Shown here: in pieces, positions 19,553-50,985 of the stretch | Layout of the letters: every line of letters starts with the position of its first letter | Position numbering within the stretch: position 1 is the stretch's first letter | NCBI GenBank assembly: GCA_965205095.1 | Contig: OZ242040.1 | Coordinates: 455,787-519,786, forward strand | DNA: 64,000 nt | Direction: 5' to 3' | From: Candidatus Multivorans sp. | GTDB lineage: Bacteria > Acidobacteriota > Thermoanaerobaculia > Multivoradales > Multivoraceae | The notes under the pieces: generated by a model | The model's input: the letters and a program-made list of their open reading frames with translations, nothing else | Database searches by the model: none | What the model was told of the DNA's origin: nothing | Position numbers and translations under genes: made by a program

Positions 19553-19652
19553 GCAGAATCGTCGCCGCTTCGCGGCGCGTTCTCTCCACGGGTCAGAAGA
19601 CCCGCGGTCACCTGCCTGCGGCGGCGGCGGGTCGGAAGACCCGCGCACCCAG
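19553..19652. repeat. REP/BIME-like composite repeat (modules ATCGTCGCCGCTTCGCGGCGCG + 2x GGGTC(A/G)GAAGACCCGCG)
   Basis: Copies of the same modules occur at 29920-29990, 39300-39410, 40190-40330, 48600-48770, 49775-49860 and 50895-50985. Confidence 0.6.
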
Positions 19653-19663
19653 TTGGCCGGCAG

Positions 19664-24552: not shown

Positions 24553-24605
24553 GCCGGAGCGTAGCGCAGCCCTGCGGGCAGCACGTCGACTGACACTGCC
24601 TTCCC

Positions 24606-24645
24606 CGGAAGCCGGCCGGAAGGCCGGCGCACCGACACCCGAAGG
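24606..24645. repeat. REP-like module GCCGGCCGGAAGGCCGGCGCACCGACA
   Basis: Near-identical copies at 32690-32720 and 39368-39398; variants at 48693-48715 and 49778-49800. Confidence 0.55.
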
Positions 24646-24666
24646 GCGTCGACTCTGCGGCTGCTC

Positions 24667-26238
24667 CTAGATGTGCTGGTACGCCTGAAGCGTCAGGAAT
24701 TCCTGGAACTCGGAGCCGAGCACCAGGTCGTCGAGCAGGGAAGCAGCGAGTCCGAAGCGGCTCGCTTCGCGGCCGCCGAGCTGGCTCAGCTCTTCGTCGC
24801 GCACCTGCTCGTAGAGCTCCGCCGTGACCTGTTCGCCGTTGTCCATCCGCGCGTTGCGATGGACCCACTGCCAGAGCTGGGCGCGGGCGATCTCGGCGGT
24901 CGCCGCGTCCTCCATCAGGTTGTTGATCGCGGCCGCTCCGTTGCCGTTGAGCCAGGAGTTCATGTACTGAAGCCCTACGGACACGTTGTTGCGCAGCCCC
25001 TGCTCGGTCAGCGAACCGCCGGGCACGTTCAGGTCGATCAGGCTGCCGGGCTCGATGGAGACGTCCTGGCGCAGCCTCTCCTTCTGGTTCGGACGGCCCT
25101 CCATCTTCGTGGAGAACACTTCCAGGGCGATCGGCACCAGATCCGGATGGGCGACCCAACTGCCGTCGAAGCCGTCGCCGGCCTCGCGCTCCTTGTCGGC
25201 CCGGACCGCCGCCAGCGCCGTCGCGTTGACTTCCGGATCGCGCCGGCTCGGGATGAAGGCCGCCATGCCGCCGATCGCGTGCGCGCCGCGACTGTGGCAG
25301 GTGCGGACCAGGAGCTCCGTGTAGGAGCGCATGAAGGGAACGGTCATCGTGATCTGGCCGCGGTCGGGCAGCACCAGGTCCTCGCGGAACGCGAACTTCT
25401 TGATCGCGCTGAAGATGTAGTCCCAGCGCCCGGCGTTGAGCCCCGCCGAGTGGTCGCGCAGTTCGTAGAGGATCTCCTCCATCTCGAAGGCGGCGAGGAT
25501 CGTCTCGATCAGCACCGTGGCGCGGACGCTGCCCTGCGGAACCCCTAGCGCATCCTGGGCGGCAACGAAGATGTCGTTCCAGAGCCGCGCCTCGTGGCGG
25601 TTCTCGAGCTTCGGCAGATAGAAGTACGGCCCGCTGCCGCGGCTGAGCGCCTCCTTCGCGTTGTGGAAGAAGTAGAGGCCAAAGTCGAAGATGCCGGCAG
25701 AGACGGGCTCGCCGTCGATCAGGGCATTCTTCTCGATCAGGTGCCAGCCGCGCGGACGCACCAGCAAGGTCGCGATCTCGTCCTTGAGGCGGTACTCCTT
25801 GCCGTTGCCGGGGTTCGTGAACTCCAACTTTCTGCGCACCGCGTCGTACAGGTTCTGCTGACCCTCGATCACGTTGCGCCAGCTCGGACTGAGCGCGTCC
25901 TCGATGTCCGCCATGAACACCTTCGCGCCGGAGTTCAGCGCGTTGATCATCATCTTGCGGTCGACGGGACCGGTGATCTCGGCCCAGCGGCAGTTCAGGT
26001 CCGCCGGCGTCGGCGCGACCTTCCAGTCGCCGTCCCGGACTTCCTGCGTCTCGGAGGGGAAGGTCGGATCCTCCCCGGCCTGGATCCGGGCGTGGCGATC
26101 GACCCGGTCCTGGAGCAACTGGACCCGGCGCTCATCGAACTGCCTGCAAAGGTCGCCGGCGAACTCGAGCGCCTCCGGCGTCAGGATGTGTTCCGCCGCC
26201 TCGAAGTCCCGCGGCCCGCTGATCTCGATTCCACTCAT
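24667..26238 (-). CDS. aceB: malate synthase A
   Basis: Full-length match to the malate synthase A family (...[10 protein letters not shown]..., catalytic Arg/Asp regions). Confidence 0.9.
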
Positions 26239-26533
26239 TCTGCCGTCTCCCGAACCGGTCGTTGACCGGAGTCTCGTCTCGTCGTCCGTTGTCGCCTGAC
26301 TCGCCGAACGGCAACCACCGCCCGTCGAAGCGGCGGCAGCTTACCGGATGCTCGAAACGCCCTGAAACCGCGAACGGCCCGGAGCCGTACAACGTTTCGG
26401 CACCGGCGGGGAACATGCGACAATGCCGCGGCGTTGCATGCTCCCGGCGTCACCAGCCGGTCGAAAGGCCTTTCCCACCCAGTTTCCGCGGCGCGGGCTC
26501 ACGGCGCCGTCCAGCGACCGGAGGTTCAGCTTC

Positions 26534-29500
26534 ATGATCGTCTCCCGTACCGCCTCAGGCGCAACCCTGCGCATCGCCGCCCTGATCGCCGTCCTCTCGG
26601 CAGCCCCCGCGACGGCCCAGACCGGCGAGCCAACGAAGCTGCTTCGCTTCCCGGACCTGTCCGGCGACCGGATCGCGTTCACCTATGCGGGCGACATCTG
26701 GCTCGCCTCGGCGGAAGGCGGCGCCGCGAGACGGCTGACTTCCCATCCCGGTCTGGAGCTGTTCGCGAAGTTCTCGCCGGACGGCTCGCAGATCGCCTTC
26801 ACCGGCCAGTACGACGGCGACGAGCAGGTCTACGTCGTGGACACCGCGGGCGGCGCGCCAAGGCAGTTGACCTTCTATCCGGCGGCCGGACCGCTCGCGC
26901 CGCGCTGGGGCTACGACTACCAGGTCTACGGCTGGTCGCCCGACGGCAAGTCCGTGCTGTTCCGGTCGCTTCGCGACGGCTGGGACCTGGGCGACACGAA
27001 GCTCTTCCTTGTCGACACGGCCGGCGGCCTGCCGCGAGCCCTGCCGATGCCCGAGTCCGGCGGCGGCGACCTCTCGCCGGACGGAAAGCGCGTCGTCTAC
27101 TCGCCGGTGACCCGGGACTTCCGGCACTGGAAGCGCTATGAAGGCGGCTGGGCGCAGGACCTCTGGATCCTCGACATCGAGAGCCTGGAGTCGATCCAGG
27201 TCACGGACCACAAGCGCTCCGACCGCGATCCGATGTGGATCGGCGACACGATCTACTTCTCGTCCGACCGCGACGGCACGCTGAACCTCTACGCCTACGA
27301 CACGGCCTCCGGCGACATCGAGCAGCTCACCGAAGAGGACCGCTGGGACGTGCGCTGGCCCAGCGCGGACAAGGCGAACGGGCGGATTGTCTACGAGAAG
27401 GCCGGTTCGCTCGAGGTCTTCGACGTCGCATCGGGCAGCGCCCGTCCGGTCCCGATCCACGTGCCGACGGACCAGCTTGCCCGCCGGCCCAGCCACGTGT
27501 CCGCGGCAAACGGGGTCTCGGGCTACTCGCTCAGCCCGAAGGCGAACCGGGCCGCCTTCTCCGCCCGCGGCGACATCTTCAGCGTGCCGGTCGAGCACGG
27601 GCCGACCCGCAACCTGACCCACAGCTCCGGCGCCAACGACCGCGATCCGGCCTGGTCGCCCGACGGCCGGCGAATCGCCTTCACCTCCGATCGCAGCGGC
27701 GAAACGGAGATCTGGGTGGTCGACCAGGACGGCAGCGGCGAACCGGTGCAACTCACCGAGGGCAGCGTCGGACGCCACTACAACAACCTGCTGTGGTCGC
27801 CCGGCAGCGACCGCATCGCCTTCATCGACCAGCAGGGGCGGCTCGGGATCGTCGACGCAGGCGACCGGAACGGCGACGGCGCGGCGACCGGGCCACGGGA
27901 GATCATCGAGGTCGCCGACGACTCCCGGCCCTTCGGCACCAGCTACGACTGGTCGCCGAAAGGGGACTACCTGGCGGTCGAACTCGGCGACCCGAACGAG
28001 TTCGGCTCGATCCACCTGTTCGAGGTCGAGAGCCGGACGCTCACCCGCGTGACGTCCGAGATGTGGAATGACTTCTTCCCCGTCTTCGGCGCGGGCGGCG
28101 ACTACCTCTACTTCCTCTCCGACCGTCAGTTCCAGCCGCAGATCGGCAGCTTCGAGTACAACTACGCCGCCGATCGCGAGACGTACATCTACGCGCTCGC
28201 CCTGCGCGAGGACACGGCGCATCCCTTCCCGCCGCGGAGTGACGAGGTCGAGATCGAGGAAGAAGAAGACGACGAGGAGGACGGCGACGGCGGCAAGGAG
28301 CACGAGAGCGACGACGACAGCGACGAGGAGGAGGACGGGAAGGACGGTGACCGGATCGACCTCGACGGCATCGCAGGGCGCGTGGCCCGCGTCCCGGTCG
28401 ACGCGGACAACTACTTCGGCCTCGGCGCCGCCGAAGGCAAGCTGCTCTACGTGCGCGGCGGCGCCGGCTACCTGGGCCGCTCCTCCGACGTCCAGACCGA
28501 GGTCTTCTCGTACGACCTCGACAAGCGCGAAAGCAAGAGCCTGGCCAAGGGCATCGGCGGCCTGGTCCTCTCCGGCGACCGCAGAAAACTGCTCGTCAGC
28601 GAACGCGGCAGCTTCCGGCTCCTCGACGTTGGCGGCGGCGAGGCGAAGACCATCTCCCTCGCCGGCCTGGCCGTCGACCGGGTGCCGGACGAGGAATGGG
28701 CCCAGATCTTCGACGAGGTGTGGCGCCGGTTCCGGGACTTCTTCTACGCCCCGAACATGCACGGCTACGACTGGGAGGCGCTGCGCGAGCAGTACCGGCC
28801 GCTGCTAGCTCACGTCGGCCACCGCAGCGACCTGAACTACCTGATGAGCGAGATGGTCGCCGAGCTGAACGTGTCCCACGCCTACGTCAGCGGCGGCGAC
28901 TACGAAGCGCCCGACCGGCCGCGCGCCGCCCTGCTCGGCGCCCGCTTCGAACTCGACGAGGATGCCGGTCGCTACCGGATCGCCCGCATCTTCGAAGGCC
29001 AGAACGAGGAGCCCCGCTACCGCTCGCCGCTCACCGAGATCGGCGTCGACGTCGACGCGGGCGACTACCTGTTCGCGATCCAGGGCCGCGAGCTGACGCC
29101 GGACACGAACCCGTTCCAGCTCCTCCGCGAGGCCGGACGGGGACCGCTGGAGCTGACCGTCGATTCGAGCGCCGACCGTGGCGAGGCGAAGAACGTCCTC
29201 GTCGATCCCATCGCGAGCGAGGACGCGCTGATCTACCTCGCCTGGACCGAGCGCGCCCGCGGCATCGTCGAGGAGCTCGGCGGCGGCCGGATCGGCTACC
29301 TCCACATCCCCGACATGTCGGCGAGCGGCATCCGGGAGTGGATCAAGTGGTACTACGGCCAGGTCCGCAAGGACGCCATGGTCGTCGACGTCCGCTCGAA
29401 CGGCGGCGGCAACGTGTCGCCGATGATCATCGAGCGGCTGCGGCGCGAGACGCTGATGCTCGACTTCGAGCGCAACCGCGACTCCGTCGACACCTCGCCC

Positions 29501-29893
29501 GGCGGCGTCTTCCACGGCCACCTCGTCTGCGTGATCGACGAGGACACCGCCTCGGACGGCGACCAGTTCGCGTACCAGTTCCGGCGCGCCGGGCTGGGAC
29601 CGATCGTCGGCAAGCGGAGCTGGGGCGGCGTCGTCGGCATCTACGGCCGGGCGCCGCTGATCGACGGCGGCTCCGTCAACGTGCCCGAGGCCGGCTCCGC
29701 CGACCCGGAGGGCAACTGGGTGATCGAGGGCTACGGCGTCGACCCGGACATCGAGGTCACGAACCTGCCCCGCGACATCCTCGAAGGACGGGACCCGCAA
29801 CTCGCGAAAGCCGTCGAGCTCCTGCTCGAGAAACTGGAGGAAGATCCGCGGACACTGCCCGGCCGCCCGGCCGACCCGATCAAGACGCCATAA
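26534..29893 (+). CDS. tricorn-protease-like S41 peptidase (WD40-like beta-propellers + PDZ + S41 catalytic domain)
   Basis: Signal peptide; repeated FSPDG/WSPDG beta-propeller blades; C-terminal S41 domain (GGGNVSP.., KRSWGGVVG). Contains a 35-aa acidic low-complexity insert (EIEEEEDDEEDGDGGKEHESDDDSDEEEDGKDGD). Confidence 0.8.
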   Translation: MIVSRTASGATLRIAALIAVLSAAPATAQTGEPTKLLRFPDLSGDRIAFTYAGDIWLASAEGGAARRLTSHPGLELFAKFSPDGSQIAFTGQYDGDEQVYVVDTAGGAPRQLTFYPAAGPLAPRWGYDYQVYGWSPDGKSVLFRSLRDGWDLGDTKLFLVDTAGGLPRALPMPESGGGDLSPDGKRVVYSPVTRDFRHWKRYEGGWAQDLWILDIESLESIQVTDHKRSDRDPMWIGDTIYFSSDRDGTLNLYAYDTASGDIEQLTEEDRWDVRWPSADKANGRIVYEKAGSLEVFDVASGSARPVPIHVPTDQLARRPSHVSAANGVSGYSLSPKANRAAFSARGDIFSVPVEHGPTRNLTHSSGANDRDPAWSPDGRRIAFTSDRSGETEIWVVDQDGSGEPVQLTEGSVGRHYNNLLWSPGSDRIAFIDQQGRLGIVDAGDRNGDGAATGPREIIEVADDSRPFGTSYDWSPKGDYLAVELGDPNEFGSIHLFEVESRTLTRVTSEMWNDFFPVFGAGGDYLYFLSDRQFQPQIGSFEYNYAADRETYIYALALREDTAHPFPPRSDEVEIEEEEDDEEDGDGGKEHESDDDSDEEEDGKDGDRIDLDGIAGRVARVPVDADNYFGLGAAEGKLLYVRGGAGYLGRSSDVQTEVFSYDLDKRESKSLAKGIGGLVLSGDRRKLLVSERGSFRLLDVGGGEAKTISLAGLAVDRVPDEEWAQIFDEVWRRFRDFFYAPNMHGYDWEALREQYRPLLAHVGHRSDLNYLMSEMVAELNVSHAYVSGGDYEAPDRPRAALLGARFELDEDAGRYRIARIFEGQNEEPRYRSPLTEIGVDVDAGDYLFAIQGRELTPDTNPFQLLREAGRGPLELTVDSSADRGEAKNVLVDPIASEDALIYLAWTERARGIVEELGGGRIGYLHIPDMSASGIREWIKWYYGQVRKDAMVVDVRSNGGGNVSPMIIERLRRETLMLDFERNRDSVDTSPGGVFHGHLVCVIDEDTASDGDQFAYQFRRAGLGPIVGKRSWGGVVGIYGRAPLIDGGSVNVPEAGSADPEGNWVIEGYGVDPDIEVTNLPRDILEGRDPQLAKAVELLLEKLEEDPRTLPGRPADPIKTP

Positions 29894-29919
29894 CATCCAC
29901 GAGAGGAACACCCCGAAGC

Positions 29920-29990
29920 CACTGGGTGCACCGGCGCCCCCGCCGGCTGTAGCCGCGGGTCTTCTGACCGGCGGAACAAGACTGACGCGA
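29920..29990. repeat. REP/BIME-like repeat copy (CACTGGGTGCACCGGCGCC...GCGGGTCTTCTGACC)
   Basis: Shares modules with the 19.6-kb, 48.7-kb and 49.8-kb copies. Confidence 0.5.
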
Positions 29991-30028
29991 AGCGGCGAGT
30001 CCGAGCCAATCCCATTCAGGAGAATCCC

Positions 30029-31428: not shown

Positions 31429-33618
31429 GTGAGCCCCGCACATCCCAGCACGGAGCCACGGTCGACGAGAAGCGCCGGGCGCGTCGCGGTCCTCCTGCCC
31501 TGCCTCAACGAGGAGGCGACGATCGGCAGCGTCGTGGGGCAGTTTCAGACGGCCCTGCCCGAGGCCTCCATCTACGTCTGCGACAACGGTTCGGAGGACG
31601 GCACCGCCGCAGCCGCCCGCAGGGCCGGCGCCGAGGTCATCCTCGAGGAACGGCGCGGCAAGGGCCTGGCCGTCCGCCGCCTGTTCCAGGAAGTCGACGC
31701 CGATGTCTACCTGATCGCCGACGGCGACGGCACCTACCACGCCGCCAGCGCCGAGCGTCTCGTTTCCACGCTGGCCGGCCGCTACCTGGACATGGTCGTG
31801 GCGGTTCGCCGGAGCACGGAGCCCGGCGCCTACACGCCGATCCGCCGCCTCGGCAACCGCCTCTTCAGCCTGCTCGCCCGGTGGCGCTGCCACCGAACCG
31901 TCCGGGACCTGCTCTCCGGTTACCGCGCCTTCTCCCGCCGGTACGTCGACGCCTTCCCGGCCCGCTCGGACGGCTTCGAGGTCGAGACGGAGATGACCCT
32001 GTTCGCCGCGTCGGCGGGAATGGCCTGGGACGAGATCGAATGCCCGTACTTCGCGCGCCCGCCAGGGTCGCGAAGCAAACTGCACGCCTTCCGGGATGGA
32101 TTCCGGATCCTCCGAACACTGCTCTGGTCGCCGGCCGCGGCCGCGGGTGAGCAGCGCCTCGGCGCGTTGCGAGCCGCCGTCCTGGTGGCCACCGTAACGG
32201 TCGTCGCCACGGCCTCCTTCCTCGGCCTCAACTGGCTCGCGGCCAACGCCGATCCGGAGCCCGTTGCCGACGCTCTCCGGGCCTCGTACGAGCACCCGGA
32301 ACGCACGCTCAGGGACTCCGCCGAGCGCTTCAACGACTGCCTGCTGAGCCTGATGGCGCTCGACCGCGGCGGCACGACCGTCGAACGCACCGTCTCGCCC
32401 CGGCGCGTGTACCGCTACACCCGGCCCCAGCGCCCCTGCGACGCCCTCGAGCAGCGCCTCAGCCAGGGCGCCGTCGACGACTCCGACTACCTGACCGTCT
32501 TCTACCACCAGTACTGGGCCGGCCAGCGGGTGATGCTGCAGTGGCTGCTGCCGCCGCTCGGCGTCGACGGCCTGAGGCGGACGTTGCGGTTGCTGACGTT
32601 CGGCCTGCTCGGGCTCGGGTTCTTCGGTGCGTTGGGACGCATCGTCCTTCTCTTCATCGGCCGCGAGCCCGAAAGCAAGGCGGGCGGAGGCCGGCCGGAA
32701 GGCCGGCGCACCGACAGGGCGGCGCCGCGCCAGAGCGCCGGCAACTCGAGGCGCTGGCGCGAACACTTCTTCCAGGCGATGGCCCTCGCCGCTCTCTTCC
32801 TCTGCCTGTTCCTGTTCCTCGACCTCGACCGTCGCGCGGAGAGCTTCACAACCGGCGCCTCCAACATCCTGACGCTCGCCCTGCTCGTCGCGGTGCCGGC
32901 GTTCGGGATCGCCAACTGGAAGCCGGGACGCCAGGTCCTCCTCTTCGCCGGTTTCGGGGCCGCGATCGCCTACCACGAACTCCTCTTCGGCAGCGCCCTG
33001 ATCGGCCTGGCCTGCGTGCTCCTCGCCCTCGCCACGTCGCCGCCCCCGACCCACGCCACGGTCGCGGTCGCCCGGAGCTGGTGGCCCGCTCTCTTCCTGC
33101 GCTGCGGCGGCGCCTACGTCGGTTGCCTCAGCGCCGTCTTCCTGCTCCGCGTCGTCATCGCCGAGTTCGTGTTCAGGGAACCCGTGCTGTTCAAGTTCTG
33201 GGACCAGCTCACGCACCGGCTCTACGGAGCGCCCCGTAGCTCGATCCACCCGGACATCGACCCCTTCTACGCCTCCCGGCCGACCATGGAGAGGTTCCTC
33301 GAACGGCTCGGGAACAACCTGGGCACGGTCGGCTTCGGCTCAACCGCGGTCGCCCTCATCCTGATCGCCGGCACCGCACTGACCCTGATCGCCGCGACCG
33401 TCTTCGTCCTGAAACAGCGACGTTCCCTGGAAGAGCCCTGGCGCTGGCTCGGCGTTCTCGCCGCCGGCTGGTCCGTTCCCGCGTGGTACGTCGTCCTCTC
33501 TGCCCACGCGATGGCGCACGTCCCGGTGGCGATCCGCCTGCTGGCGCTGCCCTACGCGGCGGTGGCGGTGCTCATCGTGGGCGTTGCGGTGTTCGGCCGG
33601 CGGACGGAGGTTGTGTGA
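31429..33618 (+). CDS. family-2 glycosyltransferase fused to a large polytopic membrane domain
   Basis: The N-terminal GT2 domain (VAVLLPCLNEE..VCDNGSEDGT..ADGDGT) is followed by more than 10 predicted TM helices. A hydrophilic loop at aa 419-435 is encoded by a REP-like module. Confidence 0.65.
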   Translation: MSPAHPSTEPRSTRSAGRVAVLLPCLNEEATIGSVVGQFQTALPEASIYVCDNGSEDGTAAAARRAGAEVILEERRGKGLAVRRLFQEVDADVYLIADGDGTYHAASAERLVSTLAGRYLDMVVAVRRSTEPGAYTPIRRLGNRLFSLLARWRCHRTVRDLLSGYRAFSRRYVDAFPARSDGFEVETEMTLFAASAGMAWDEIECPYFARPPGSRSKLHAFRDGFRILRTLLWSPAAAAGEQRLGALRAAVLVATVTVVATASFLGLNWLAANADPEPVADALRASYEHPERTLRDSAERFNDCLLSLMALDRGGTTVERTVSPRRVYRYTRPQRPCDALEQRLSQGAVDDSDYLTVFYHQYWAGQRVMLQWLLPPLGVDGLRRTLRLLTFGLLGLGFFGALGRIVLLFIGREPESKAGGGRPEGRRTDRAAPRQSAGNSRRWREHFFQAMALAALFLCLFLFLDLDRRAESFTTGASNILTLALLVAVPAFGIANWKPGRQVLLFAGFGAAIAYHELLFGSALIGLACVLLALATSPPPTHATVAVARSWWPALFLRCGGAYVGCLSAVFLLRVVIAEFVFREPVLFKFWDQLTHRLYGAPRSSIHPDIDPFYASRPTMERFLERLGNNLGTVGFGSTAVALILIAGTALTLIAATVFVLKQRRSLEEPWRWLGVLAAGWSVPAWYVVLSAHAMAHVPVAIRLLALPYAAVAVLIVGVAVFGRRTEVV

Positions 33619-33764
33619 AATCTCGGAGCCAGGACCTTGAAATCTCGGAGCTACTCATCATGAGATTGCGGACTGGAGATTCAGAAATCTCGGAGCTAGT
33701 GATCTTGAAATCTCGGAGTACATTACCCGGAAATTTCGGAGTACACTAACCGGAAATCTCGGAG
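33617..33764. repeat. array of 6 direct repeats GAAATCTCGGAG (last four at exact 23-bp spacing) filling the intergenic region upstream of the DUF4143 ATPase
   Basis: Copies start at 33617, 33649, 33684, 33707, 33730 (GAAATtTCGGAG) and 33753. Confidence 0.75.
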
Positions 33765-33795
33765 TGCAACTGAGACTTCGGTTAGAGTCATCGAG

Positions 33796-34950
33796 ATGAT
33801 CGACCGGACCGAGTACCTCAGGCGAATGGCGACCGCCACGAAGCGATCGCCGGTCACGTCTCTGCTTGGACCGCGCCAGTGCGGCAAGACCACCCTGGCC
33901 CACAAGTTCGCTGCGACCCGCGCGGCAACCCTGTTCGACCTGGGATCGGAGGCGGACGTCCGGCGGCTCAGCAACCCCGAGCTGGTCCTGGGCGAGCTCG
34001 AAGGACTCGTCGTCCTGGACGAGATCCAGATCATGCCCCGCCTCTTCCGCGTCCTCCGCGTCCTTGCCGACCGGCCGGACTCCCACACGCGTTTCCTGAT
34101 CCTCGGCAGTGCGTCCCCGGAGATCGTGGGCGGCGCCGCGGAGTCGCTGGCCGGCCGGGTCGAGTTCATCGACATGACCGGCTTCGACCTGGCCGAGACC
34201 GGCGCAGCCGATCTGCGGAAACTCTGGCGGCGCGGCGGCTTTCCCCGCTCCTACCTTGCCTCTTCCGAAGCCGACAGCTCGCGTTGGCGCAGCGGGTTCC
34301 TCCGGACCTTCCTGCAAAGGGATCTCCCACAACTCGGTATCGCGATTCCTCCCGCAGCAATGCGGCGCTTCTGGACCACCCTGGCGCACTACCACGGCCA
34401 GATCTGGAACGCGGCCAAACTCGGCCGATCGATCGGCGTCTCGGACAAGACGGCTCGCCACTACCTCGACCTGCTGACCGGCGCCTTCATGGTCCGCCAA
34501 CTCCAGCCCTGGTTCGAGAACACGGCCAAGCGCCAGGTCAAGGCGCCCAAGACCTACATCCGCGACACCGGCCTCCTGCATTCGCTACTCGGCATCGGCA
34601 AGGACCAAGAACTCCTGGGTCACGCCCGCGTCGGCGCGTCCTGGGAGGGCTTCGCCATCGAGCAGGTCTTGAGCGCCCTCGGCCAACCCGATGCCTGGTT
34701 CTGGGCCACCCACGGCGGCGGCGAACTCGACCTGATGGTCCTTGCGCGCGGCCTCCGCATCGGCTTTGAAATGAAATTCAGCGAGGCGCCCAAGGTCACC
34801 ACGTCGATACGCAACGCAGCCGAAACGCTGGCGCTCGACCACCTCTTCGTCGTCTGCCCCACGCGGCACACCTACCCGGTGACCGAGAAGATCACTGTGC
34901 TGTCGGCAGGCGACATTCCCGGCTTGCGCGACCGGGTCGAGGCTCTGTAA
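33796..34950 (+). CDS. AAA+ ATPase with C-terminal DUF4143 (COG1373-type)
   Basis: Walker A LLGPRQCGKTTLA, Walker B VVLDEIQ, and a conserved DUF4143 region (...KTYIRDTGLLHSLLGI...). Confidence 0.75.
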   Translation: MIDRTEYLRRMATATKRSPVTSLLGPRQCGKTTLAHKFAATRAATLFDLGSEADVRRLSNPELVLGELEGLVVLDEIQIMPRLFRVLRVLADRPDSHTRFLILGSASPEIVGGAAESLAGRVEFIDMTGFDLAETGAADLRKLWRRGGFPRSYLASSEADSSRWRSGFLRTFLQRDLPQLGIAIPPAAMRRFWTTLAHYHGQIWNAAKLGRSIGVSDKTARHYLDLLTGAFMVRQLQPWFENTAKRQVKAPKTYIRDTGLLHSLLGIGKDQELLGHARVGASWEGFAIEQVLSALGQPDAWFWATHGGGELDLMVLARGLRIGFEMKFSEAPKVTTSIRNAAETLALDHLFVVCPTRHTYPVTEKITVLSAGDIPGLRDRVEAL

Positions 34951-39298: not shown

Positions 39299-39299
39299 C

Positions 39300-39410
39300 T
39301 GAACATTCTAGGGCTAGCGGGCGCCGTATCGTCGCCGCTTCGCGACGCGGCTATCTGGCCGCCAGCGCCGGCAGCCGGCCAGAAGGCCGGCGCACCGACA
39401 GTCGGACTGT
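39300..39410. repeat. REP/BIME-like composite repeat (CTAGCGGG..ATCGTCGCCGCTTCGCGACGCG..GCCGGCCAGAAGGCCGGCGCACCGACA)
   Basis: Modules shared with the 19.55-kb, 24.6-kb and 32.7-kb copies. Confidence 0.6.
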
Positions 39411-39428: not shown

Positions 39429-41432
39429 CTACGCCGCCGTCTCCTGCTGGGCGTACTGAAGCTGGTACAGGCGCCAGTAGACGCCGCGGAGCTCCAGGAG
39501 TTCGTCGTGGGTGCCGTGTTCGCAGATGGCGCCGTGGTGAAAGACGTAGATGCGGTCGACGTCCTTGATCGTCGACAGGCGGTGGGCGACGACGATCGAG
39601 GTCTTGCCTTCCACGAGGTGGCGCAGGGCGTCCTGGATCAGGGCCTCGGTTTCGGTGTCGACGCTGGAGGTCGCTTCGTCGAGGAGCAGGAGTTGCGGCT
39701 CGCGGGCCAGGGCGCGGGCGAAGGAGAGCAGTTGCCGCTGGCCGGTCGAGAAGTTCACGCCGCGTTCGCTGACCTTGTGCGCCCAGCCGTTCGGCAGCCG
39801 CTCGATCAGGTCGTCGACGTGGGTGGCGCGCGCCGCCTCGTCCACCACGTTGTCCGCGACGTCGCGGCCGAGGACGATGTTGTAGCGGAGGTCGCCGTCG
39901 AACAGGAAGACGTCCTGGAGCACGAAGGCCAGCCGGCGCCGCAGTTCGGGTTTCGGGATGTCGCGGATGTCCCTGCCGTCGACCCGGATCGATCCCTCCT
40001 GCAGCTCGTAGAGGCGGGCCAGCAGCTTGAGCGTCGTCGTCTTCCCGGAGCCCGTGTGGCCGACGATCGCGACCCGCTCGCCCGCGGCGACCCGGAAGGA
40101 GACATCGCGCAGCACGGTCTCCGCGCCGTAGGCGAAGGTGACGCCGTCGAATTCGACCTCGCAGCCGTCGGGCTCGGCGGCGGTCTTCGTCACGCCCGTT
40201 GTCGCCGCTTCGCGGCGCGCGTCTCCGCGGAAGCCGGCGGGGGCGCCGGCGCACCCGGTGTGCGCGGAGGCCGCGGCGTCGGCGTCCTGCGTGGCGCCGG
40301 CGCACCCAGTGTGCGCGGCGGCCGCGTCGGCGGCGTCCGCAGGCTCCTCGGCCCTGCCCTCCGGTTCCCGCGGCTCGTCCAGCAACTGGAACACGCGCTC
40401 GGCACTCGCCATGGACGACTGCATCACGGAGTACTTCGCCGACAGGTCCATCAGCGGCCGGAAGAACCGGCTCATGTAGTCGGAGAACACGTAGATCGTG
40501 CCCAGCGTGATGCCGCCCAAGCCCATCATCTGCGCTCCGTACCAGAAGATGAGCGCCCGGGTCAGGTTCGTCGCCAGATCGACGGTCGAGAACAGCAGCG
40601 CGTCGTAGCGGATCGAGCGCAGCCAGGAATCCCGGTGAGAGGCGTTCTCGCGACTGAAGTCCTCGAAGTTGCGCCGTTCGCGGGCGAACAACTGGACCAC
40701 CTTCATGCCGGAGATCGTCTCCTGCAGGTGGGCGTTGAGGCGTGCGATCTTGACCCGGACCTCCCGGTAGGCCTCCCGTACCTTGTAGCGGAAGATCGCC
40801 GCCGCGATGCCCAGTACCGGCACCAGGGCCAGCGCCGCCAGCGCAAGCCGCGGGTCGATCGCGAACAGCATGGTGAGGATGACGACCATGACGAACACAT
40901 CGGCCACCATCGCGATGACGCCCGCCGAGAACATCTCGGCCAGGTGCTCCAGGTCGTTCGTGAGCCGCGTCACGAGGCGGCCGACCGGGTAGCGGTCGAA
41001 GAAGCGCATCGGCAGCCGCTGGACGTGATCGAACAGCGTCCTGCGAACGTCCCGGACCGTGCGCTGGCCGAGCGAGATCATCGTGAAGGCCCGCAGCCAG
41101 TCCATGATCAACGTGACGATCGAGATGGCGAACACCAGCCCGAACATCCAGGCCAGGGGCCCGAGTCCCAGCCGCGGCGCGACGAAGGGCGCCATCCAAC
41201 CCACCTCCGTGGTCGCCTCTCCCTCGGTCAGGTAGTTCAGCGCGGCGCCGACGACGAGCGCCGGCATCAGCTCGAGGACGGCCCGCGGCGGAATCAGGGC
41301 GAAGTTGAGCCCGATCCAGCCGCGGTAGGGCCGCATGAACGGCCAGAGCCGCTTGATCAGCTCCGTGTCGTAGACCTTGCCGAGGTCCCGCTCACGACCA
41401 AGCTGGGCAGCCTCGCTCCGCTCCTCGCTCAC
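39429..41432 (-). CDS. ABC exporter half-transporter (TMD-NBD) with an about 70-aa low-complexity insertion in the TMD-NBD linker
   Basis: Six TM helices, then Walker A GHTGSGKTT, the signature LSTGQRQLL, and Walker B LLLLDEATS. The linker aa 355-425 (ADAADAAAAHTGCAGA..ASAHTGCAGAP) is encoded by REP-like DNA. Confidence 0.85.
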   Translation of the reverse strand: MSEERSEAAQLGRERDLGKVYDTELIKRLWPFMRPYRGWIGLNFALIPPRAVLELMPALVVGAALNYLTEGEATTEVGWMAPFVAPRLGLGPLAWMFGLVFAISIVTLIMDWLRAFTMISLGQRTVRDVRRTLFDHVQRLPMRFFDRYPVGRLVTRLTNDLEHLAEMFSAGVIAMVADVFVMVVILTMLFAIDPRLALAALALVPVLGIAAAIFRYKVREAYREVRVKIARLNAHLQETISGMKVVQLFARERRNFEDFSRENASHRDSWLRSIRYDALLFSTVDLATNLTRALIFWYGAQMMGLGGITLGTIYVFSDYMSRFFRPLMDLSAKYSVMQSSMASAERVFQLLDEPREPEGRAEEPADAADAAAAHTGCAGATQDADAAASAHTGCAGAPAGFRGDARREAATTGVTKTAAEPDGCEVEFDGVTFAYGAETVLRDVSFRVAAGERVAIVGHTGSGKTTTLKLLARLYELQEGSIRVDGRDIRDIPKPELRRRLAFVLQDVFLFDGDLRYNIVLGRDVADNVVDEAARATHVDDLIERLPNGWAHKVSERGVNFSTGQRQLLSFARALAREPQLLLLDEATSSVDTETEALIQDALRHLVEGKTSIVVAHRLSTIKDVDRIYVFHHGAICEHGTHDELLELRGVYWRLYQLQYAQQETAA

Positions 41433-43279
41433 GACGGCTCCCCCAGGGGCAAGCGCTGCTGTCCCGCGGCGGCCGGGGCCGGGACGCCAGCCGCCGGCTC
41501 CGGCACCGCCGCGCCGCCGTCGCCAATCTCGAGTTCCGACAACAGCTCCTGGCGATGGTGCAGACGGGCATAGAAGCCGCCCAGTTCGACGAGCTCGCGG
41601 TGGCTACCCCGCTCGCTGATCCGGCCGTTCTCGAGCACGACGATCTGGTCCGCGTGCCGCACGGCCGAGATCCGGTGCGCCACGATGAAGCACGTCCGGC
41701 CGCGGCGCCGGCCCTCGAGGTCGCCCAGGATCGCCTCTTCGGTGCCGTGGTCGACGCTCGAGAGGGAGTCGTCCAGGATGAGGATCGACGGGCGCAGGAT
41801 CATCGCCCGCGCCAGGGCGACGCGCTGGCGCTGGCCGCCCGACAGGGTGACCCCGCGTTCGCCGACCACGGTGTCGAAGCCGTCCTCGAACTCCTCGATC
41901 TCCCGTTCGACCTGGGCCCGGGCCGCCGCCCGCCTCACCTCCTCGAGGTGGACGTCCGGCACGCCGTAGCGGATGTTCTCGGCCACCGAAATGGAGAACA
42001 GGAAGCTGTCCTGCGGCACCATCGCGATGCTCGAACGCAGCAGGTGGACCGGCATCCGGTTGAGGTCCACGCCGTCGATCAGGATCGCGTCGTCGTCGAC
42101 CTCCAGGAGCCGCGGCACCAGGCTGACGAGGGTCGTCTTGCCGGAGCCGACCGGTCCCACGATGCCGACCGTGCTGCCGGCCTCCACGGTCAGGTCGACG
42201 CCCTTGAGCGCCGGCACGTAGCTGCCCGGATAGGTGAACGTGAGGTTGCGGAACTCGACGCGCCCCCTGATCTCCGAAACCGCGGCGACATCCTCGCGAT
42301 CGCGGATCGACGGCACGATGTCGAGGACGGAGCCCAGCCGCTCCAGCGCCGCGAGGCCGCGCTGGGTGATCGACACGACGAAGCCCAACATCATCGTCGG
42401 GAACGTCAGCATGCCGATGAGGCCCCAGAACAGCCACAGGTCCTCGGTGCCGAGCTGACCCGCCTGCACCCGCTGCCCACCCAGCCACAGGACCACGGCA
42501 GCCGACAGCGCCGGCACCAGGCCGACGCTGGCGAACATCGTCGTCTGCATGACCCCGACCTTCATCATCCGCCGGAAGAGCTCCTGGTTCTGCTCCTCGA
42601 AACGGTCCCGCTCCAGGTTGGACAGGTCGTAGGCCTTGACCACCAGCACGCCCGACGCGTTCTCCTGGACGACCGTGGAGACCTTGCCGAGCTGCTCCTG
42701 GCCGGCCAGGTTGGCCTGGAACATGTAGCGGCTGTAGTGGCGCGTGATCAGGACAAAGAGCGGGAAGGGCCCCAGCGCCCAGAGAGTCAGCGTGGCGTCC
42801 ACCGGCAGCAGGACGATCAGTGCGCCCGCGAACAGCACCGGCGTCTGCAGCAGATTCAGCAGACCCATTCCCAGGAACATCCGGATGCTGTTGATGTCGT
42901 TCACGGCCCGCGACATGAGGTCGCCGGTGCGGTGAGCCAGGTAGAAGGACTGCGGCAGGCTCTGGAGATGGACGAAGTAGTCGTTGCGGATGCGGTACTC
43001 GATCTGCCGGCCGATGTTGAACATGACGATGCGCGAGAAGAGCCGCGCCAGAGCCAGGCAGACCGAGGCGACGACCAGCCAGAGGATCGCCCGCCCGACC
43101 ACGTCCGGGGCGTTCTCGAAGGCGGCGACGATGTCCCGGATGGATAGCGGGATGAGCTGAAAGAAGGCCGCGTAGAGGAGCGTGAGTATCCCGCCCAGGA
43201 CGTAGGCGCCGGGGGCGAGGCGCATGTACGCGAAGAGGCGGGCAAGCGGCTTCTGGCTTCCTGCCGACCCACCGTCCAT
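41429..43279 (-). CDS. ABC exporter half-transporter (TMD-NBD), partner of the upstream gene
   Basis: Walker A GPVGSGKTT, signature LSGGQRQRV, Walker B LILDDSLS. An ATGA overlap couples it to the downstream partner. The start is uncertain (43279 or 43408). Confidence 0.8.
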   Translation of the reverse strand: MDGGSAGSQKPLARLFAYMRLAPGAYVLGGILTLLYAAFFQLIPLSIRDIVAAFENAPDVVGRAILWLVVASVCLALARLFSRIVMFNIGRQIEYRIRNDYFVHLQSLPQSFYLAHRTGDLMSRAVNDINSIRMFLGMGLLNLLQTPVLFAGALIVLLPVDATLTLWALGPFPLFVLITRHYSRYMFQANLAGQEQLGKVSTVVQENASGVLVVKAYDLSNLERDRFEEQNQELFRRMMKVGVMQTTMFASVGLVPALSAAVVLWLGGQRVQAGQLGTEDLWLFWGLIGMLTFPTMMLGFVVSITQRGLAALERLGSVLDIVPSIRDREDVAAVSEIRGRVEFRNLTFTYPGSYVPALKGVDLTVEAGSTVGIVGPVGSGKTTLVSLVPRLLEVDDDAILIDGVDLNRMPVHLLRSSIAMVPQDSFLFSISVAENIRYGVPDVHLEEVRRAAARAQVEREIEEFEDGFDTVVGERGVTLSGGQRQRVALARAMILRPSILILDDSLSSVDHGTEEAILGDLEGRRRGRTCFIVAHRISAVRHADQIVVLENGRISERGSHRELVELGGFYARLHHRQELLSELEIGDGGAAVPEPAAGVPAPAAAGQQRLPLGEPS

Positions 43280-43367
43280 GGCGGGGGACCATAACAACGC
43301 ACCTCCCCCGAGCGCCGCGCGGCTGGGGTAGGCTGCCGCAGCTTTCCCCAAGCTCCGTACGCCATTC

Positions 43368-43976
43368 ATGAAGCTCCACTGGTTCGTCTTCCTCACGCTG
43401 ATCGGCATGTGCCTGGCGGTCGGCGCGGCGTTCGTCGCGCCAACGGAGGTCGTCGTACAGGACGGCGCGACCGAGCAGGTCGTGAGCAGCAGCGGCTTTC
43501 AGCACGACCGCTTCTCCACGATGCGGCAGGGCGGCCCGGGTGCTGAACGTCACGCCACGACGCTCTGGATCGGCTGGGCCTTCGTCATCTTCCAGGTGCT
43601 CTTCTTCGGCGGCTGCCTGGCGATGGGCATGGAGCGCCGGGGCGCCGAAGGCCCGTCACTGGGGCCCGCCCGCGGTCCGCTCCTCTACGCCACGTTGATT
43701 CTGGCGGCGATCTTCACCGCGCTCGTCTTCTCGTACCAGCGCTACGCCACCTCGGACACGCACACCCTGTTCCTCGGCTTCCCCAGGCCGACGGCATGGG
43801 TCTTCTACGCGGTCTGGCCCTTCCCGGTGTATCTCATGTTCGTCTACATGCGGATCTTCGACCGCTGGTTCTTCACCGAGGAGGACGAGCGCAAGGTCGC
43901 GGAACTCGCCTCGGCCCAGAGACAGAAGGAACTTGAAGCCGGCGGCAGCGACGCGGCCCGGGCGGAGGGCGGCTGA
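43368..43976 (+). CDS. small polytopic membrane protein translationally coupled to the SSS symporter (possible symporter small subunit)
   Basis: About 4 TM helices. The stop overlaps the symporter start (ATGA). Confidence 0.5.
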   Translation: MKLHWFVFLTLIGMCLAVGAAFVAPTEVVVQDGATEQVVSSSGFQHDRFSTMRQGGPGAERHATTLWIGWAFVIFQVLFFGGCLAMGMERRGAEGPSLGPARGPLLYATLILAAIFTALVFSYQRYATSDTHTLFLGFPRPTAWVFYAVWPFPVYLMFVYMRIFDRWFFTEEDERKVAELASAQRQKELEAGGSDAARAEGG

Positions 43977-48599: not shown

Positions 48600-48770
48600 C
48601 CCTCGGTGTCGCAGGTCCGCTGGGTGCGCGGGTCTTCTGACCCGCCCTCGGGCGGAGCCGCAGGGCGGCTCAGCCCGGACAATAGAGCCGCCGGCCGGAG
48701 GCCGGCGACGATGCTGGACGCCGCCTTCGGCGGCAGCGGGTCAGAAGACCCGCGCACCCAGCGGGTCCAG
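48600..48770. repeat. REP/BIME-like composite: inverted pair of the GGGTCAGAAGACCCGCGCACCCAG module around a GCCGGCCGGAGGCCGGCG core
   Basis: 48623-48650 (reverse orientation) and 48738-48766. The 45-bp stretch at 48714-48760 is nearly identical to 49800-49848. Confidence 0.65.
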
Positions 48771-48774
48771 CGGA

Positions 48775-49905
48775 CTAGCGGTGGAGGTTCTGCTCCAGGA
48801 AGCGCAGCATCATCCGCTCGATGAACCCGGCGTCGTCGATCTCCAGCGCTACCGTCGAAGTCGGCTCGGCCCCGGGTTCGAACAGGGTCATGCTGCGCTC
48901 GTCGACTGTGACGCGGCCGTGTTCGAGACCGAACAGGTCGGGCCACAGCAGGTAGCCGACAGCGACAGCGTCGAACAGCCGCGGCGTGGTCTGGTTCCGC
49001 TCCTCGTTCCGCCACAGCGAGTAGAGCGCCGTCACCGCGTCGGTCAGCGGCGTGCCGCGCATGTGCAGGTGGAGTCGCCGATCGGCGTCGAGACGGACGT
49101 GGTCCGTCACGTCGAGCGGGATGTAGACGACGTCCGTGCCGCCGGCCTGTACGCCGGCGTCGAAGATGCGCGACGAGGCGGCGTCGGCGAGGACGTTCCA
49201 CTCCCGCTGCGCGTCACCGCCGTCGTAGCCGGAGCGGATCGAGCCGTACATCGAGACGACCCGTTTCGCGTTCTTCAGCACGCCCGGATCGAGTTCCAGC
49301 GCGTCGCCGATGTTCGTCACCGGGCCGACGGTGAGCAAGGTGATCTCGCCCGGAGCGGCGGCCAGCGTCTCCACGATGAACTCGGCCGCCGACTGCGCCC
49401 GCGGTTGCACCTCGTCGAAACCGCGCGCCCAGTGGAACTGCCGGTTGTACGGCGCCTCGGCGAACTGTTCGTGGGGCGTCCCGTCGCGCAGCGTGACCAG
49501 GGGAGTCTCCCGGCCGACGTACACGGGGATGTGGTCGAGCCCCGTCTCCCAGAGCATCCGGAGCGCCAGGGGCGCGCGGTCCGGCGTGCGCGCATGACCG
49601 ACGGTGATGCCGACAAGCTCGATCTCGGGGCTCGCGAGAAGCAAAGCCAGAGCGTAGGCGTCGTCGATGTCCGAGCCGATGTCGCAGTCGAAGAGGACCT
49701 TCTGGGGCCCGGCTGGGGTGGGTTGCGCAGCAGCGGGCACACCGGAAACGAGGAGGGCGAGGAGGAGAAGAGCCGGAGCCGGCCAGAGGCCGGCGCGTTC
49801 TTGACGCCGCCTTCGGCGGCAGCGGGTCAGAAGACCCGCGCACCCAGTGGGCAACGCCGCAACAAGTTGCCTCCCGAGACCGTCCGTTTCCTTCGTCATC
49901 ACCAT
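48775..49905 (-). CDS. inosine-uridine preferring nucleoside hydrolase, secreted/periplasmic
   Basis: N-terminal DxDxxxDD motif (FDCDIGSDIDDAYALALLL) and the IU_nuc_hydro fold. The start is uncertain because the leader region contains a REP-like module. Confidence 0.7.
   Translation of the reverse strand: MVMTKETDGLGRQLVAALPTGCAGLLTRCRRRRRQERAGLWPAPALLLLALLVSGVPAAAQPTPAGPQKVLFDCDIGSDIDDAYALALLLASPEIELVGITVGHARTPDRAPLALRMLWETGLDHIPVYVGRETPLVTLRDGTPHEQFAEAPYNRQFHWARGFDEVQPRAQSAAEFIVETLAAAPGEITLLTVGPVTNIGDALELDPGVLKNAKRVVSMYGSIRSGYDGGDAQREWNVLADAASSRIFDAGVQAGGTDVVYIPLDVTDHVRLDADRRLHLHMRGTPLTDAVTALYSLWRNEERNQTTPRLFDAVAVGYLLWPDLFGLEHGRVTVDERSMTLFEPGAEPTSTVALEIDDAGFIERMMLRFLEQNLHR
49775..49860. 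repeat. REP/BIME-like copy (GCCGGCCAGAGGCCGGCG...GACGCCGCCTTCGGCGGCAGCGGGTCAGAAGACCCGCGCACCCAGTGG)
   Basis: Near-identical to 48714-48760. Lies within the predicted 5' leader / signal region of the nucleoside hydrolase ORF. Confidence 0.6.
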
Positions 49906-49960: not shown

Positions 49961-50884
49961 ATGCCCGACTCGCGACTCCGACGGTTCGTTCGCGACCCCC
50001 TGTTCGTGTTCCTGGTGATCGGGGTCGGGGTGTTCGCCCTCGACCGCATGGCCGGCGGGGTCTTCGACGCGGAAGGCCGTACGATCGTCGTCAACCGGGC
50101 GCAGGTGATCCGGCTGGCCGATCTCTGGAGCGCGCAGATCGGCCGGCTGCCGACCGTGGCGGAACTCGACTCCCTGGTTGACGACCACGTCCGGGAGGAG
50201 ATCCTGGTGCGAGAGGCGGCGCGCATGGGTCTCGACCAGGACGACACGATCGTCCGCCGGCGCCTGGCCCAGAAGATGTCCTTCCTGATCGAGGACACGG
50301 CGGTCGCGGACGCGGTGCCGGACGCCGAGCTCGAGCAGTACTTCGAGGAGAACGCGGAGCGATACGGGGAACCGCGACGCTTCACGCTCCGCCACGTCTA
50401 CGTCAGCCCCGATCGCCGCGGCAGCGACGAGGAAGCGGCCAGGGCGGCTTCCGACATTCTCGAGCAGCTCCGGGCCGAGGGTAACGACGCCGCGCCCGAG
50501 AACACGCTCTGGCGGCGACTCGGCGACCCCTTCATGCTGCGCCGCGAGTACGGCCGCCGAACCGCCGAGGACCTGGCCGAACTGTTCGGCGGCGCCTTCG
50601 TCGACGGACTGGAGACACTGCCGATCGGCGAGTGGGCGGGACCGGTCGAGTCCGCCTACGGCTACCACGTCGTTCGGCTCTCCGTCCGCACGGAAGCGCA
50701 GCCGGCGGTGCTCGAGGACGTGCGCCGGCGAGTGCTGGACGACGCCCAGCGCGACGCCCGCGACGCCGCGAACCGGGCCGCGCACGAGCAACTGCGCGAG
50801 CGCTACCGGATCGTGGTCGAGGAGATCGACTTTCTCTCCGAGCTGGAAGGCGGCGGCGCGGGCGAGGCCGGAGACGAGCCCTGA
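49961..50884 (+). CDS. membrane-anchored parvulin-like (PpiC/SurA-type) peptidyl-prolyl isomerase-like protein
   Basis: N-terminal TM helix. The central region resembles a PpiC/SurA chaperone (..LRHVYVSPD.., ..SAYGYHVVRLS..). Confidence 0.55.
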   Translation: MPDSRLRRFVRDPLFVFLVIGVGVFALDRMAGGVFDAEGRTIVVNRAQVIRLADLWSAQIGRLPTVAELDSLVDDHVREEILVREAARMGLDQDDTIVRRRLAQKMSFLIEDTAVADAVPDAELEQYFEENAERYGEPRRFTLRHVYVSPDRRGSDEEAARAASDILEQLRAEGNDAAPENTLWRRLGDPFMLRREYGRRTAEDLAELFGGAFVDGLETLPIGEWAGPVESAYGYHVVRLSVRTEAQPAVLEDVRRRVLDDAQRDARDAANRAAHEQLRERYRIVVEEIDFLSELEGGGAGEAGDEP

Positions 50885-50894: not shown

Positions 50895-50985
50895 GAAGCG
50901 GACGCCGGCCCTGCGGCGGGCGCGATCTGACGGCCGCCTGCGGCGGCAGCCGGCGGGGGCGCCGGCGCACCCAGTGGTCAGCCTC
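50895..50985. repeat. REP-like copy (CGGCGGCAGCCGGCGGGGGCGCCGGCGCACCCAGTGG)
   Basis: Module similarity to 40240-40330 and 48738-48766. Confidence 0.45.

Follow-up and report, generated by a model that had tools for sequence, protein, structure and literature searches.

The 64,000-nt stretch analysed here (hereafter, the window; contig OZ242040.1 of Candidatus Multivorans sp., assembly GCA_965205095.1, positions 455,787 to 519,786) encodes a 667-aa ATP-binding cassette (ABC) exporter half-transporter (39429..41432, minus strand), in which the loop between the transmembrane domain (TMD) and the nucleotide-binding domain (NBD) carries an in-frame insert of 150 nt, or 50 codons (40189..40338, minus strand; approximately residues 366-415). 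We hold with considerable confidence that this segment is a member of a clade-specific family of hairpin repeats, of the repetitive extragenic palindrome (REP) or REP doublet forming hairpin (REPIN) type, and that it resides in the loop as a tolerated passenger. The insert was delimited by aligning the DNA of filled, empty and partial alleles. It encodes the peptide ..ADAAAAHTGCAGATQDADAAASAHTGCAGAPAGFRGDARREAATTGVTK.., and its ends can be placed to within a few nt, since CGCCGCCG occurs on both flanks. An earlier reading of the sequence alone (the original prediction) had proposed a REP-like element at 40190-40330; it found the right locus and an open reading frame, which indeed runs across the whole insert, while the element's limits lie at approximately 40189-40338.

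The insert is composed of recognizable repeat modules. A 26-mer, GGCGCCGGCGCACCCRGTGTGCGCGG, occurs exactly twice (40242-40267 and 40293-40318; 0 expected from shuffles), and a 22-mer, GTTGTCGCCGCTTCGCGGCGCG, lies at 40198-40219 (0.01 expected), with intergenic relatives at 19558 and 39328 that differ by 2-3 mismatches. A repeat search matched positions 40224-40260 to sites at 24602, 32681, 39365, 48727, 49813 and 50940, with an inverted match at 29920. Moreover, a profile built from 187 copies, all located outside the window, detected the gene copy (E=1.2e-4) as well as its duplicated half (E=2.4e-3). The modules quoted in the original prediction are thus present and non-random, and the linker DNA shares them with intergenic repeats, as had been claimed. 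The core REP unit spans ~64 nt (40200..40263, plus strand), is 84-93% identical to ~14 non-orthologous copies, and reads in the element's plus orientation TGTCGCCGC-TTC-GCGGCG..spacer..GCCGGCG-GGGG-CGCCGGC-GCACCCGGTGTGC, the host mRNA carrying the reverse complement. It joins module A, the hairpin CGCCGC-TTC-GCGGCG (40203..40217; read from the sequence and predicted in folds, with relatives at 19558 and 39328), to module B, the hairpin GCCGGCG-GGGG-CGCCGGC followed by the conserved tail GCACCCGG (40233..40258; repeat search, hairpin-and-motif scan and profile), whose stem type recurs at 50948 and 29920. Tandem Repeats Finder (TRF) reported a 51-nt (17-codon) tandem duplication at 40242..40338 (1.9 copies, 91% match), with the second half-unit at 40293-40318. 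The two copies described originally are accordingly two copies of the 26-mer, produced by tandem duplication of part of one element and not by two insertions.

The same family populates the rest of the window. Ten full units were found, at ~19.64, 24.62, 29.93, 32.70, 39.39, 40.25, 48.63, 48.75, 49.84 and 50.96 kb, by a repeat search, a hairpin-and-motif scan and the outside-copy profile, all of which agree. Each unit has 7 bp of stem around a 4-nt loop and then the motif GCGCACC(C/G)A, and the stems come in three variants (GCCGGCC/GGCCGGC, GCGGGTC/GACCCGC and GCCGGCG/CGCCGGC), each perfectly self-complementary. Together with the hairpins CGCCGC-TTC-GCGGCG and GCCGCC-TTCG-GCGGC, the units form composite elements of ~60-100 nt. 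Eight of the ten are intergenic, most of these lying 5-30 nt 3' of a stop codon, and two are in frame inside genes.

The intergenic members differ in their make-up. Modules A and B occur at 39328..39405 (plus), 24 nt downstream of the ABC stop, at a site that varies among strains and is empty in L006 (L numbers denote DNA loci fetched from relatives, and P numbers the relatives' proteins). Module A with a partial and a full module B is found at 19558..19658 (plus), 5 nt downstream of a pyruvate kinase stop, and the combination of A, partial B and B also at 29919..29998 (minus), 26 nt past the stop codon of gene 26423..29893 (plus strand). A module B copy lies at 24598..24637 (plus), ~30 nt beyond the point where gene 24667..26238 (minus strand) stops, and a member at 50910..50980 (plus), 26 nt after the stop codon of gene 49961..50884, includes a module B, GCCGGCGGGGGCGCCGGCGCACCCAGTGG, that is the closest match to the gene copy within the window. 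A three-hairpin member sits between divergent genes at 49783..49853 (plus; repeat search, scan and profile). Between convergent genes, the repeat search and RNA folding revealed a REPIN-like inverted doublet (48611..48767), in which 90 nt separate two 29-nt arms (48617-48645 and 48736-48764) of 100% complementarity, and whose predicted RNA fold reaches -136.9 kcal/mol (z = -8.95). No Rfam family reached its gathering score anywhere in the window; having considered attC sites and canonical intrinsic terminators, we saw neither a T-run 3' of the hairpins nor integron-type motifs.

The homology between the gene copy and the intergenic copies extends beyond the palindromes. With the single-copy insert as a query, ~14 further non-orthologous loci were recovered at 84-93% identity over 59-64 nt, and the similarity among them begins and ends at fixed positions (CA.ACTGGG ... 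GCGGCGAC). In L002, the intergenic element just 3' of the ABC stop has the layout of the gene copy over ~64 nt (module B-spacer-module A), including the non-palindromic spacer: CACACTGGGTGCGCCGGCG..CGCCGGCTTCTGAGGAGACGCG..GCC.CGAAGCGGCGACA. Many intergenic copies also possess an outer inverted pair, GCGCGGCAGAA / TTCTGCCGCGC(TAG), that the gene copy lacks; this extension contains TAG. A degenerate pattern covering the three stem types, run on one genome per species, yielded at least 117 stretches with matches and 196 strict matches; several of the listed stretches share a chromosome. All but three of the 117 listed stretches come from Acidobacteriota metagenome-assembled genomes (MAGs) labelled Thermoanaerobaculia, 'Holophagales' or Candidatus Multivorans, the last of which NCBI places in Thermoanaerobaculia. 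Judging by the matches listed, then, the family appears nearly confined to one clade (class Thermoanaerobaculia, genus-level 'Candidatus Multivorans').

The behaviour of these copies is that of REPs. Watson-Crick pairing at all three stem positions left free by the pattern was found in 193 of the 196 listed strict matches, which include five distinct complementary stems. Nearly two thirds of them (125/196) follow the stop of an open reading frame (ORF) supported by G+C content at third codon positions (GC3) at a distance of no more than 150 nt (median 27 nt), and 99 of these 125 stop-proximal copies share one orientation, such that the mRNA reads ..TGGGTGCGC-hairpin, as it does in the gene copy. 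Inverted minus/plus pairs ~110-150 nt apart were also present in L013, L034, L039, L058 and L077. Short hairpin repeats that are extragenic and close to stops display the classical properties of REPs (PMC3733652, PMC12306157). Given the covarying hairpins, the 3'-end bias, the inverted doublets and an associated REP-associated tyrosine transposase (RAYT, described below), we filed the repeats as a REP/REPIN family, with the caveat that GTAG, a tag typical of many REP classes, is absent. Module A is preceded by NGTC, which takes the form CGTC in some copies only.

Comparison of orthologues provided an allelic series at the insertion site. A protein search retrieved orthologues from Acidobacteriota MAGs with 58-97% identity and lengths of 608-683 aa, nearly all of the length variation falling in the TMD-NBD loop, and syntenic DNA was compared for eleven of them. 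Orthologues that are 82-99% identical have either no segment (617 aa), one, two or three modules (650, 667 and 680 aa, respectively) or a deletion remnant (620 aa). The empty site is represented by L001 (P0010, 617 aa), of the same allele class (..EGRSEAPAD-AAA-EPDGCEVEF..). Relative to it, L007 (650 aa) has gained 99 nt with one 17-codon module, the window allele 150 nt with two, and L003 (680 aa) 201 nt with three; L005 bears a separate 24-nt internal duplication, and L004 (620 aa) retains the distal half of the first hairpin, i.e., half of module A, with a deletion between GCCGC microhomologies. All of the loop length differences are multiples of three. While the original prediction put the protein at about 70 aa longer than typical half-transporters, the excess over the empty allele is ~50 aa (150 nt).

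Orthologues at 58-71% identity (608-620 aa), and most of those at 82-88% identity (619-622 aa), have a short, Ala/Pro-rich loop without similarity to the repeat, which indicates that the insert-free state is ancestral and settles in the affirmative the question of lineage specificity raised originally. At least seven assemblies that different projects produced independently contain the same insert, several of them on Mb-scale contigs. This replication, together with the co-divergence of insert and gene, excludes a chimera of a single assembly. Moreover, P0073 (L125, 84% identity) harbours a different insert in the same loop: it belongs to a subfamily built of CCGGCGC-TTCG-GCGCCGG plus GCCGGCG-GGGA-CGCCGGC-GCACCC, a 50-nt part of it has counterparts of 88-94% identity at no fewer than 10 other loci, and the host mRNA reads the element in the opposite orientation. 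This was an independent insertion into the same loop. Two further ideas were considered. The long linkers of P0066 and P0027 are not similar to the family or to other compared sequences, and a REP origin was rejected for them; a recent clean excision in P0010, suggested by its 99% protein identity, is doubtful, since synonymous distances describe a star-like group in which P0010 is not the closest to the window.

A candidate enzyme for the mobilization of the family was found in a close relative. The gene (L045 2205..2882, minus; 225 aa) was first located by tblastn, using an E. coli RAYT query as a lead, and was identified by curated profiles: it matches the NCBIfam equivalog NF047646 (83.8 bits, cutoff 80), Pfam Y1_Tnp (2e-8) and E. 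coli TnpA-REP, PDB 4ER8 (5e-7), and has PNHVHVLVE as its HUH motif and YIWLNPV as its tyrosine motif. It is bracketed by module B copies, which are in opposite orientations. The assembly of L045, CBDCRA01, has the insert-bearing orthologue P0005 on its contig_5 (2,600,803 bp), and homologues with 60-93% identity occur across the clade, including one on a 4,052,302-bp contig that also encodes an ABC orthologue. A metagenome scan with the RAYT returned relatives of at most 57% identity from other environments, none with these repeats, which suggests that the family is specific. A real, mainly intergenic repeat family with a candidate cognate RAYT makes the label REP-like correct; its companion term, bacterial interspersed mosaic element (BIME), is not established in the strict E. 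coli sense. As a separate observation, the region around the transposase gene (L045 1950-3200) contains short tandem GCACCGACA tails, and the GC3 of the RAYT gene is below that of its neighbours.

The exporter is not the only gene that received the repeat. Within the window, a GT2-membrane protein (31429..33618, plus) has a second in-frame insertion of 45 nt, or 15 aa, with a module B (32679..32723, plus; module B E=7e-7), which encodes ..GGGRPEGRRTDRAAP.. in a loop, and is read by the mRNA in the element's own orientation; the window and L004 have this insertion, L007 does not. Elsewhere, a same-frame coding signal on both flanks singled out 10 of the 196 listed strict matches as candidate in-frame genic copies. 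Their hosts according to Pfam include a Zn-dependent alcohol dehydrogenase (where it separates ADH_N from ADH_zinc_N), a GT2 glycosyltransferase, an S9 peptidase, a carbamoyltransferase, an Eco57I-type enzyme and a VWA protein; in the alcohol dehydrogenase and the GT2 protein, Pfam domains lie on both sides, placing the inserts between domains by Pfam coordinates. In a GFO/IDH/MocA-AKR protein (L045 3140-5332, L065 5787-8000) the REP bridges two domains, and its copy number varies among close relatives from none in P0244 (707 aa) through a single PLGARVFRPAAAEGG unit in P0241 and three such units in P0275 to five tandem HWVRGSSDP units in P0278 (803 aa). That the REP created this gene fusion was considered and rejected: the two-domain architecture is old and widespread outside the clade (Mesorhizobium, Azospirillum, Beutenbergia), so that the REP entered an existing linker.

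The in-frame copies use all three frames of the reverse complement and at least one of the forward strand. Direct reading shows that one reverse-complemented hairpin gives HWVRGSSDP, (V/L)GARVFRP and HTGCAGAP in its three frames. A loop of AGAA, which is common, would put a TGA stop into the (V/L)GARVFRP frame; the L045 copy, the one read in this frame, has GGAA. Such usage fits a simple filter that would let through stop-free copies with a length that is a multiple of three. Of note, an S9 prolyl oligopeptidase family protein (L013 1792-4221, minus) appears to contain up to three REP-like peptide segments (..GAPAVARAFWPA.., ..YRWVRGSSDPLRAEPRSGG.. and ..APDAGQKTRAP..), one of them a strict match.

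How the exporter accommodates the insert can be read from its protein context. The host gene is supported by its GC3 (0.93), by Pfam (ABC_membrane, residues 92-327; ABC_tran, residues 441-589) and by orthologues, in a window with a GC content of 68%; a look-up of the exact 667-aa sequence found no record. Directly upstream lies a partner exporter subunit, likewise TMD-NBD by Pfam (41429..43408, minus), whose stop overlaps the start of the host gene, the host being the second gene of the pair. Two adjacent TMD-NBD half-transporter genes of this kind suggest a heterodimeric pair. From the Pfam TMD match to the NBD match there are 114 aa in the host versus a normal 64 aa in the partner. AlphaFold2 (55 orthologues) predicted residues 359-421 to be coil without secondary structure (pLDDT 25-33), a stretch that fits exactly between the last TMD-connecting helix (310-352) and the first NBD beta-strand (426-435). 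In a comparison of six insert-bearing genes, the ratio of nonsynonymous to synonymous divergence (pN/pS) was 0.40 in the insert (29 shared codons) versus 0.10 in the rest of the gene, a comparison based on ~14 substitutions, and synonymous divergence (pS) was 0.11 versus 0.16. Similar pS with higher pN/pS indicates that the insert co-diverged with its host gene under relaxed constraint.

The original prediction left it open whether the repeat was domesticated or merely tolerated, and the evidence favours the latter: the disordered structure, the relaxed pN/pS and the polymorphism in presence and copy number all point to tolerance, and domestication is not shown. The Ala/Gly/Pro/Thr-rich peptide is most likely extra slack in a naturally variable loop and not an adapted domain. 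Were the REP-derived peptide instead co-opted, e.g., for TMD-NBD coupling, as a docking or regulatory segment, or through linker length, one would point to its persistence across lineages with pS up to 0.25, to a pN/pS that is still below 1, and to the same loop having been struck twice independently. Yet close relatives have no insert or only a remnant, one to three copies occur, the insert is under four times less constraint than the remainder of the gene, and the region is predicted to be disordered; the tolerance of the repeat in unrelated proteins, in all three reading frames, also argues against a specific function of the peptide. We therefore regard co-option as improbable. A broader reading, in which the clade's REP/RAYT system would be a regular source of expandable disordered linkers, its units settling in loops between domains and there expanding or contracting in frame (1 to 3 modules in the ABC exporter, 0 to 5 in the GFO/IDH/MocA-AKR enzyme), with strain-to-strain length variation visible to selection via linker length or via mRNA hairpins that pace translation where domains meet, is somewhat easier to entertain but still unlikely.

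Selection could also act on the nucleic acid, with mRNA hairpins at the TMD/NBD boundary serving as a translational pause or a stability element. Local hairpins are predicted in the mRNA of the gene copy, and the orientation bias of the copies 3' of stops, which the gene copy shares, would fit an RNA function of the intergenic copies. The RNA fold of the gene copy, however, is not distinctive relative to shuffled sequences (z = -0.70; the DNA fold gives z = -2.1), P0073 has its element in the opposite orientation, and close relatives have empty alleles, making an RNA role very improbable. Finally, the segment may not be an insertion at all, having arisen by GC-rich convergence, by copying of gene sequence into intergenic repeats, or by chimeric assembly. 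Palindromes arise easily in a genome with 68% GC, and the loose hairpin-and-motif scan gives ~2 chance matches per window. Against this stand 84-93% identity over ~62 nt, non-palindromic spacer included, at ~14 unrelated loci, the absence of any match in shuffles, more than 190 copies over many genomes, the empty and ancestral alleles, and the recurrence of the insert, co-diverging with its gene, in the independent assemblies; an origin other than insertion is hardly credible.

Several observations nonetheless weigh against reading the segment as a tolerated REP passenger. No GTAG adjoins the hairpins, which are accompanied by the conserved tag GCGCACC(C/G)A instead; to our knowledge, not all published REP classes carry GTAG. 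A pN/pS of 0.40 is less than 1 and derives from ~14 substitutions, and weak selection on the peptide or on DNA/RNA hairpins is possible. The single-module insert measures 99 nt versus a recognizable core of ~64 nt, leaving ~35 nt without explanation. The flanking CGCCGCCG may be a target duplication, microhomology or chance; a target-site duplication was considered and rejected, the CGCCGCCG flanks being too simple and GC-rich to interpret and ~35 of the 99 nt unassigned. Enzymes of the IS200/IS605 type do not generate target duplications. In view of this and of the ambiguous CGCCGCCG, the mechanism of insertion is putative. The insert is also present in L128 at pS 0.25 and absent in L001 and L006 at pS 0.14-0.15, a distribution out of step with synonymous distances, for which repeated loss or recombination of linker alleles must be invoked. 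Lastly, the 64-kb window itself has no RAYT gene, and the RAYT association rests on one flanked gene in a close relative (CBDCRA01) and on unlocated homologues.

With the tolerated-passenger reading, the events at this site could have unfolded as follows. The clade's RAYT, a Y1/HUH enzyme acting on single-stranded hairpin DNA, would have mobilized the element, and the copies surviving selection would be those that kept the frame, were free of stops and landed in a permissive loop. Slippage between short GC-rich repeats, or RAYT activity, may then have produced the 51-nt and 24-nt duplications, and likewise the empty allele and L004's deletion between microhomologies. Polymorphism in the presence of the repeat at orthologous sites is indirect evidence of mobilization. 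Both arrival by way of the RAYT and neutrality of the insert are what we infer from this pattern.

The surroundings of these elements offered some further observations. In the partner subunit of L003 (8088-10004), the C-terminal tail is a longer Ala/Gly-rich extension instead of ..AGVPAPAAAGQQRLPLGEPS. Downstream of the ABC pair lies a Fic-domain gene, for which a -10-like hexamer (TAGAAT/TAGACT/TACAAT; window 39270-39300, minus, with equivalents in L002, L004 and L006) ends 6-7 nt 5' of the ATG in every strain, a spacing suggestive of leaderless transcription. Every strain differs in the REPs that lie between the ABC stop and the Fic promoter, and L006 has none. An insertion sequence (IS) transposase gene of the DDE_Tnp_1_4 family (18025-19449, minus) adjoins the composite REP cluster at 19558-19658, and L002 has a transposase gene with the same Pfam families at a different position. 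REPs have been reported as targets for IS insertion, and this neighbourhood recalls those reports. The ~1.5 kb at 23180-24666 contain long ORFs on both strands, with no GC3-supported gene and no Pfam match, and have the REP at 24598-24637 at their right edge.

The 12-mer GAAAT(C/T)TCGGAG, which has no relation to the REP family, is present in six direct copies, mostly ~23 nt apart, at 33610-33770, in a locally AT-richer intergenic region directly 5' of an AAA_14/DUF4143 ATPase gene (33796..34950); judged by its sequence, this array looks like iterated binding sites. A 1523-aa ORF at 51845-56416 (plus) with ResIII/DEAD helicase domains sits where GC drops to 0.63-0.68, falls short of the GC3 filter, and may belong to a defence or mobile island. 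L003 and L006 have very large genes (>2,000 aa) with DEAD/Helicase_C/MZB/Peptidase_S24 families at other positions.

REPINs and RAYTs have been described before (PMC3116915, PMC3337134), and the family resembles the systems of E. coli (TnpA-REP, PDB 4ER8, PMC3479197) and Pseudomonas fluorescens (PMC3116915) in its high-copy short hairpins, mostly extragenic and near gene 3' ends, in its inverted doublets, and in a Y1/HUH RAYT bracketed by inverted copies. It differs from them in having GCGCACC(C/G)A in place of GTAG, composite units of two to three different hairpins and an uncultured Thermoanaerobaculia host, and in that ~5% of the listed strict matches, a biased sample, are in frame inside genes. 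With the BIMEs of E. coli it shares an intergenic mosaic of several hairpin modules that alternate in orientation; BIMEs, however, are defined by the E. coli Y/Z REP types, spacer motifs and binding of integration host factor (IHF) or gyrase, and there is no sequence similarity between the two.

Repeats inside genes have precedents as well. Di Nocera et al. (2013; PMC3733652) described GTAG/CGTC REPs in coding regions of, e.g., O. terrae, Thauera and Thioalkalivibrio, as single units, dimers and clusters encoding 20-82 aa, and proposed that they may be neutral because of their position in flexible linkers or loops. Theirs were enriched in DNA replication and repair genes, whereas here the repeats lie in an ABC exporter, glycosyltransferases, oxidoreductases and a peptidase, and the present case adds filled, empty and amplified alleles among close strains, with two independent strikes in one loop. 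The Rickettsia palindromic elements (RPEs), the classic in-frame palindromes (PMC10969869), have been linked to CGTC REPs (PMC3733652) and are likewise selfish palindromes found both between genes and in frame in unrelated genes at sites judged fold-compatible. RPE-1, however, is ~100-150 bp long, AT-rich, found in obligate intracellular alphaproteobacteria and without a known dedicated transposase, unlike the units here (~25-70 nt, ~80% GC, with a RAYT). Intragenic MITEs (miniature transposable elements with inverted repeats; Coxiella QMITE, PMC5896051; ERIC, Correia and Anabaena MITEs, PMC10969869) are also small, non-autonomous and able to add protein sequence in frame. They derive from DDE-type IS elements and have terminal inverted repeats and target-site duplications, whereas the present family has a Y1 RAYT and no clear duplication, although many of its intergenic copies do have the outer GCGCGGCAGAA/TTCTGCCGCGC inverted pair.

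Intragenic REPs are therefore already documented, and the general picture of REPs and of ABC transporters is unchanged by this finding; the novelty lies in the family and its host clade, in the candidate RAYT and in an unusually complete allelic series at one site. For the annotation of these MAGs, REP-derived peptides inflate protein lengths and can be mistaken for novel domains or mis-assemblies, and the series helps to find permissive loops in ABC exporters and other enzymes. For the uncultured Thermoanaerobaculia lineage, the finding supplies a REP family not described before, together with a candidate for its cognate RAYT, and its single site, empty, filled, amplified, partly deleted and struck again, can be used for studying selection on selfish hairpin DNA in genes.

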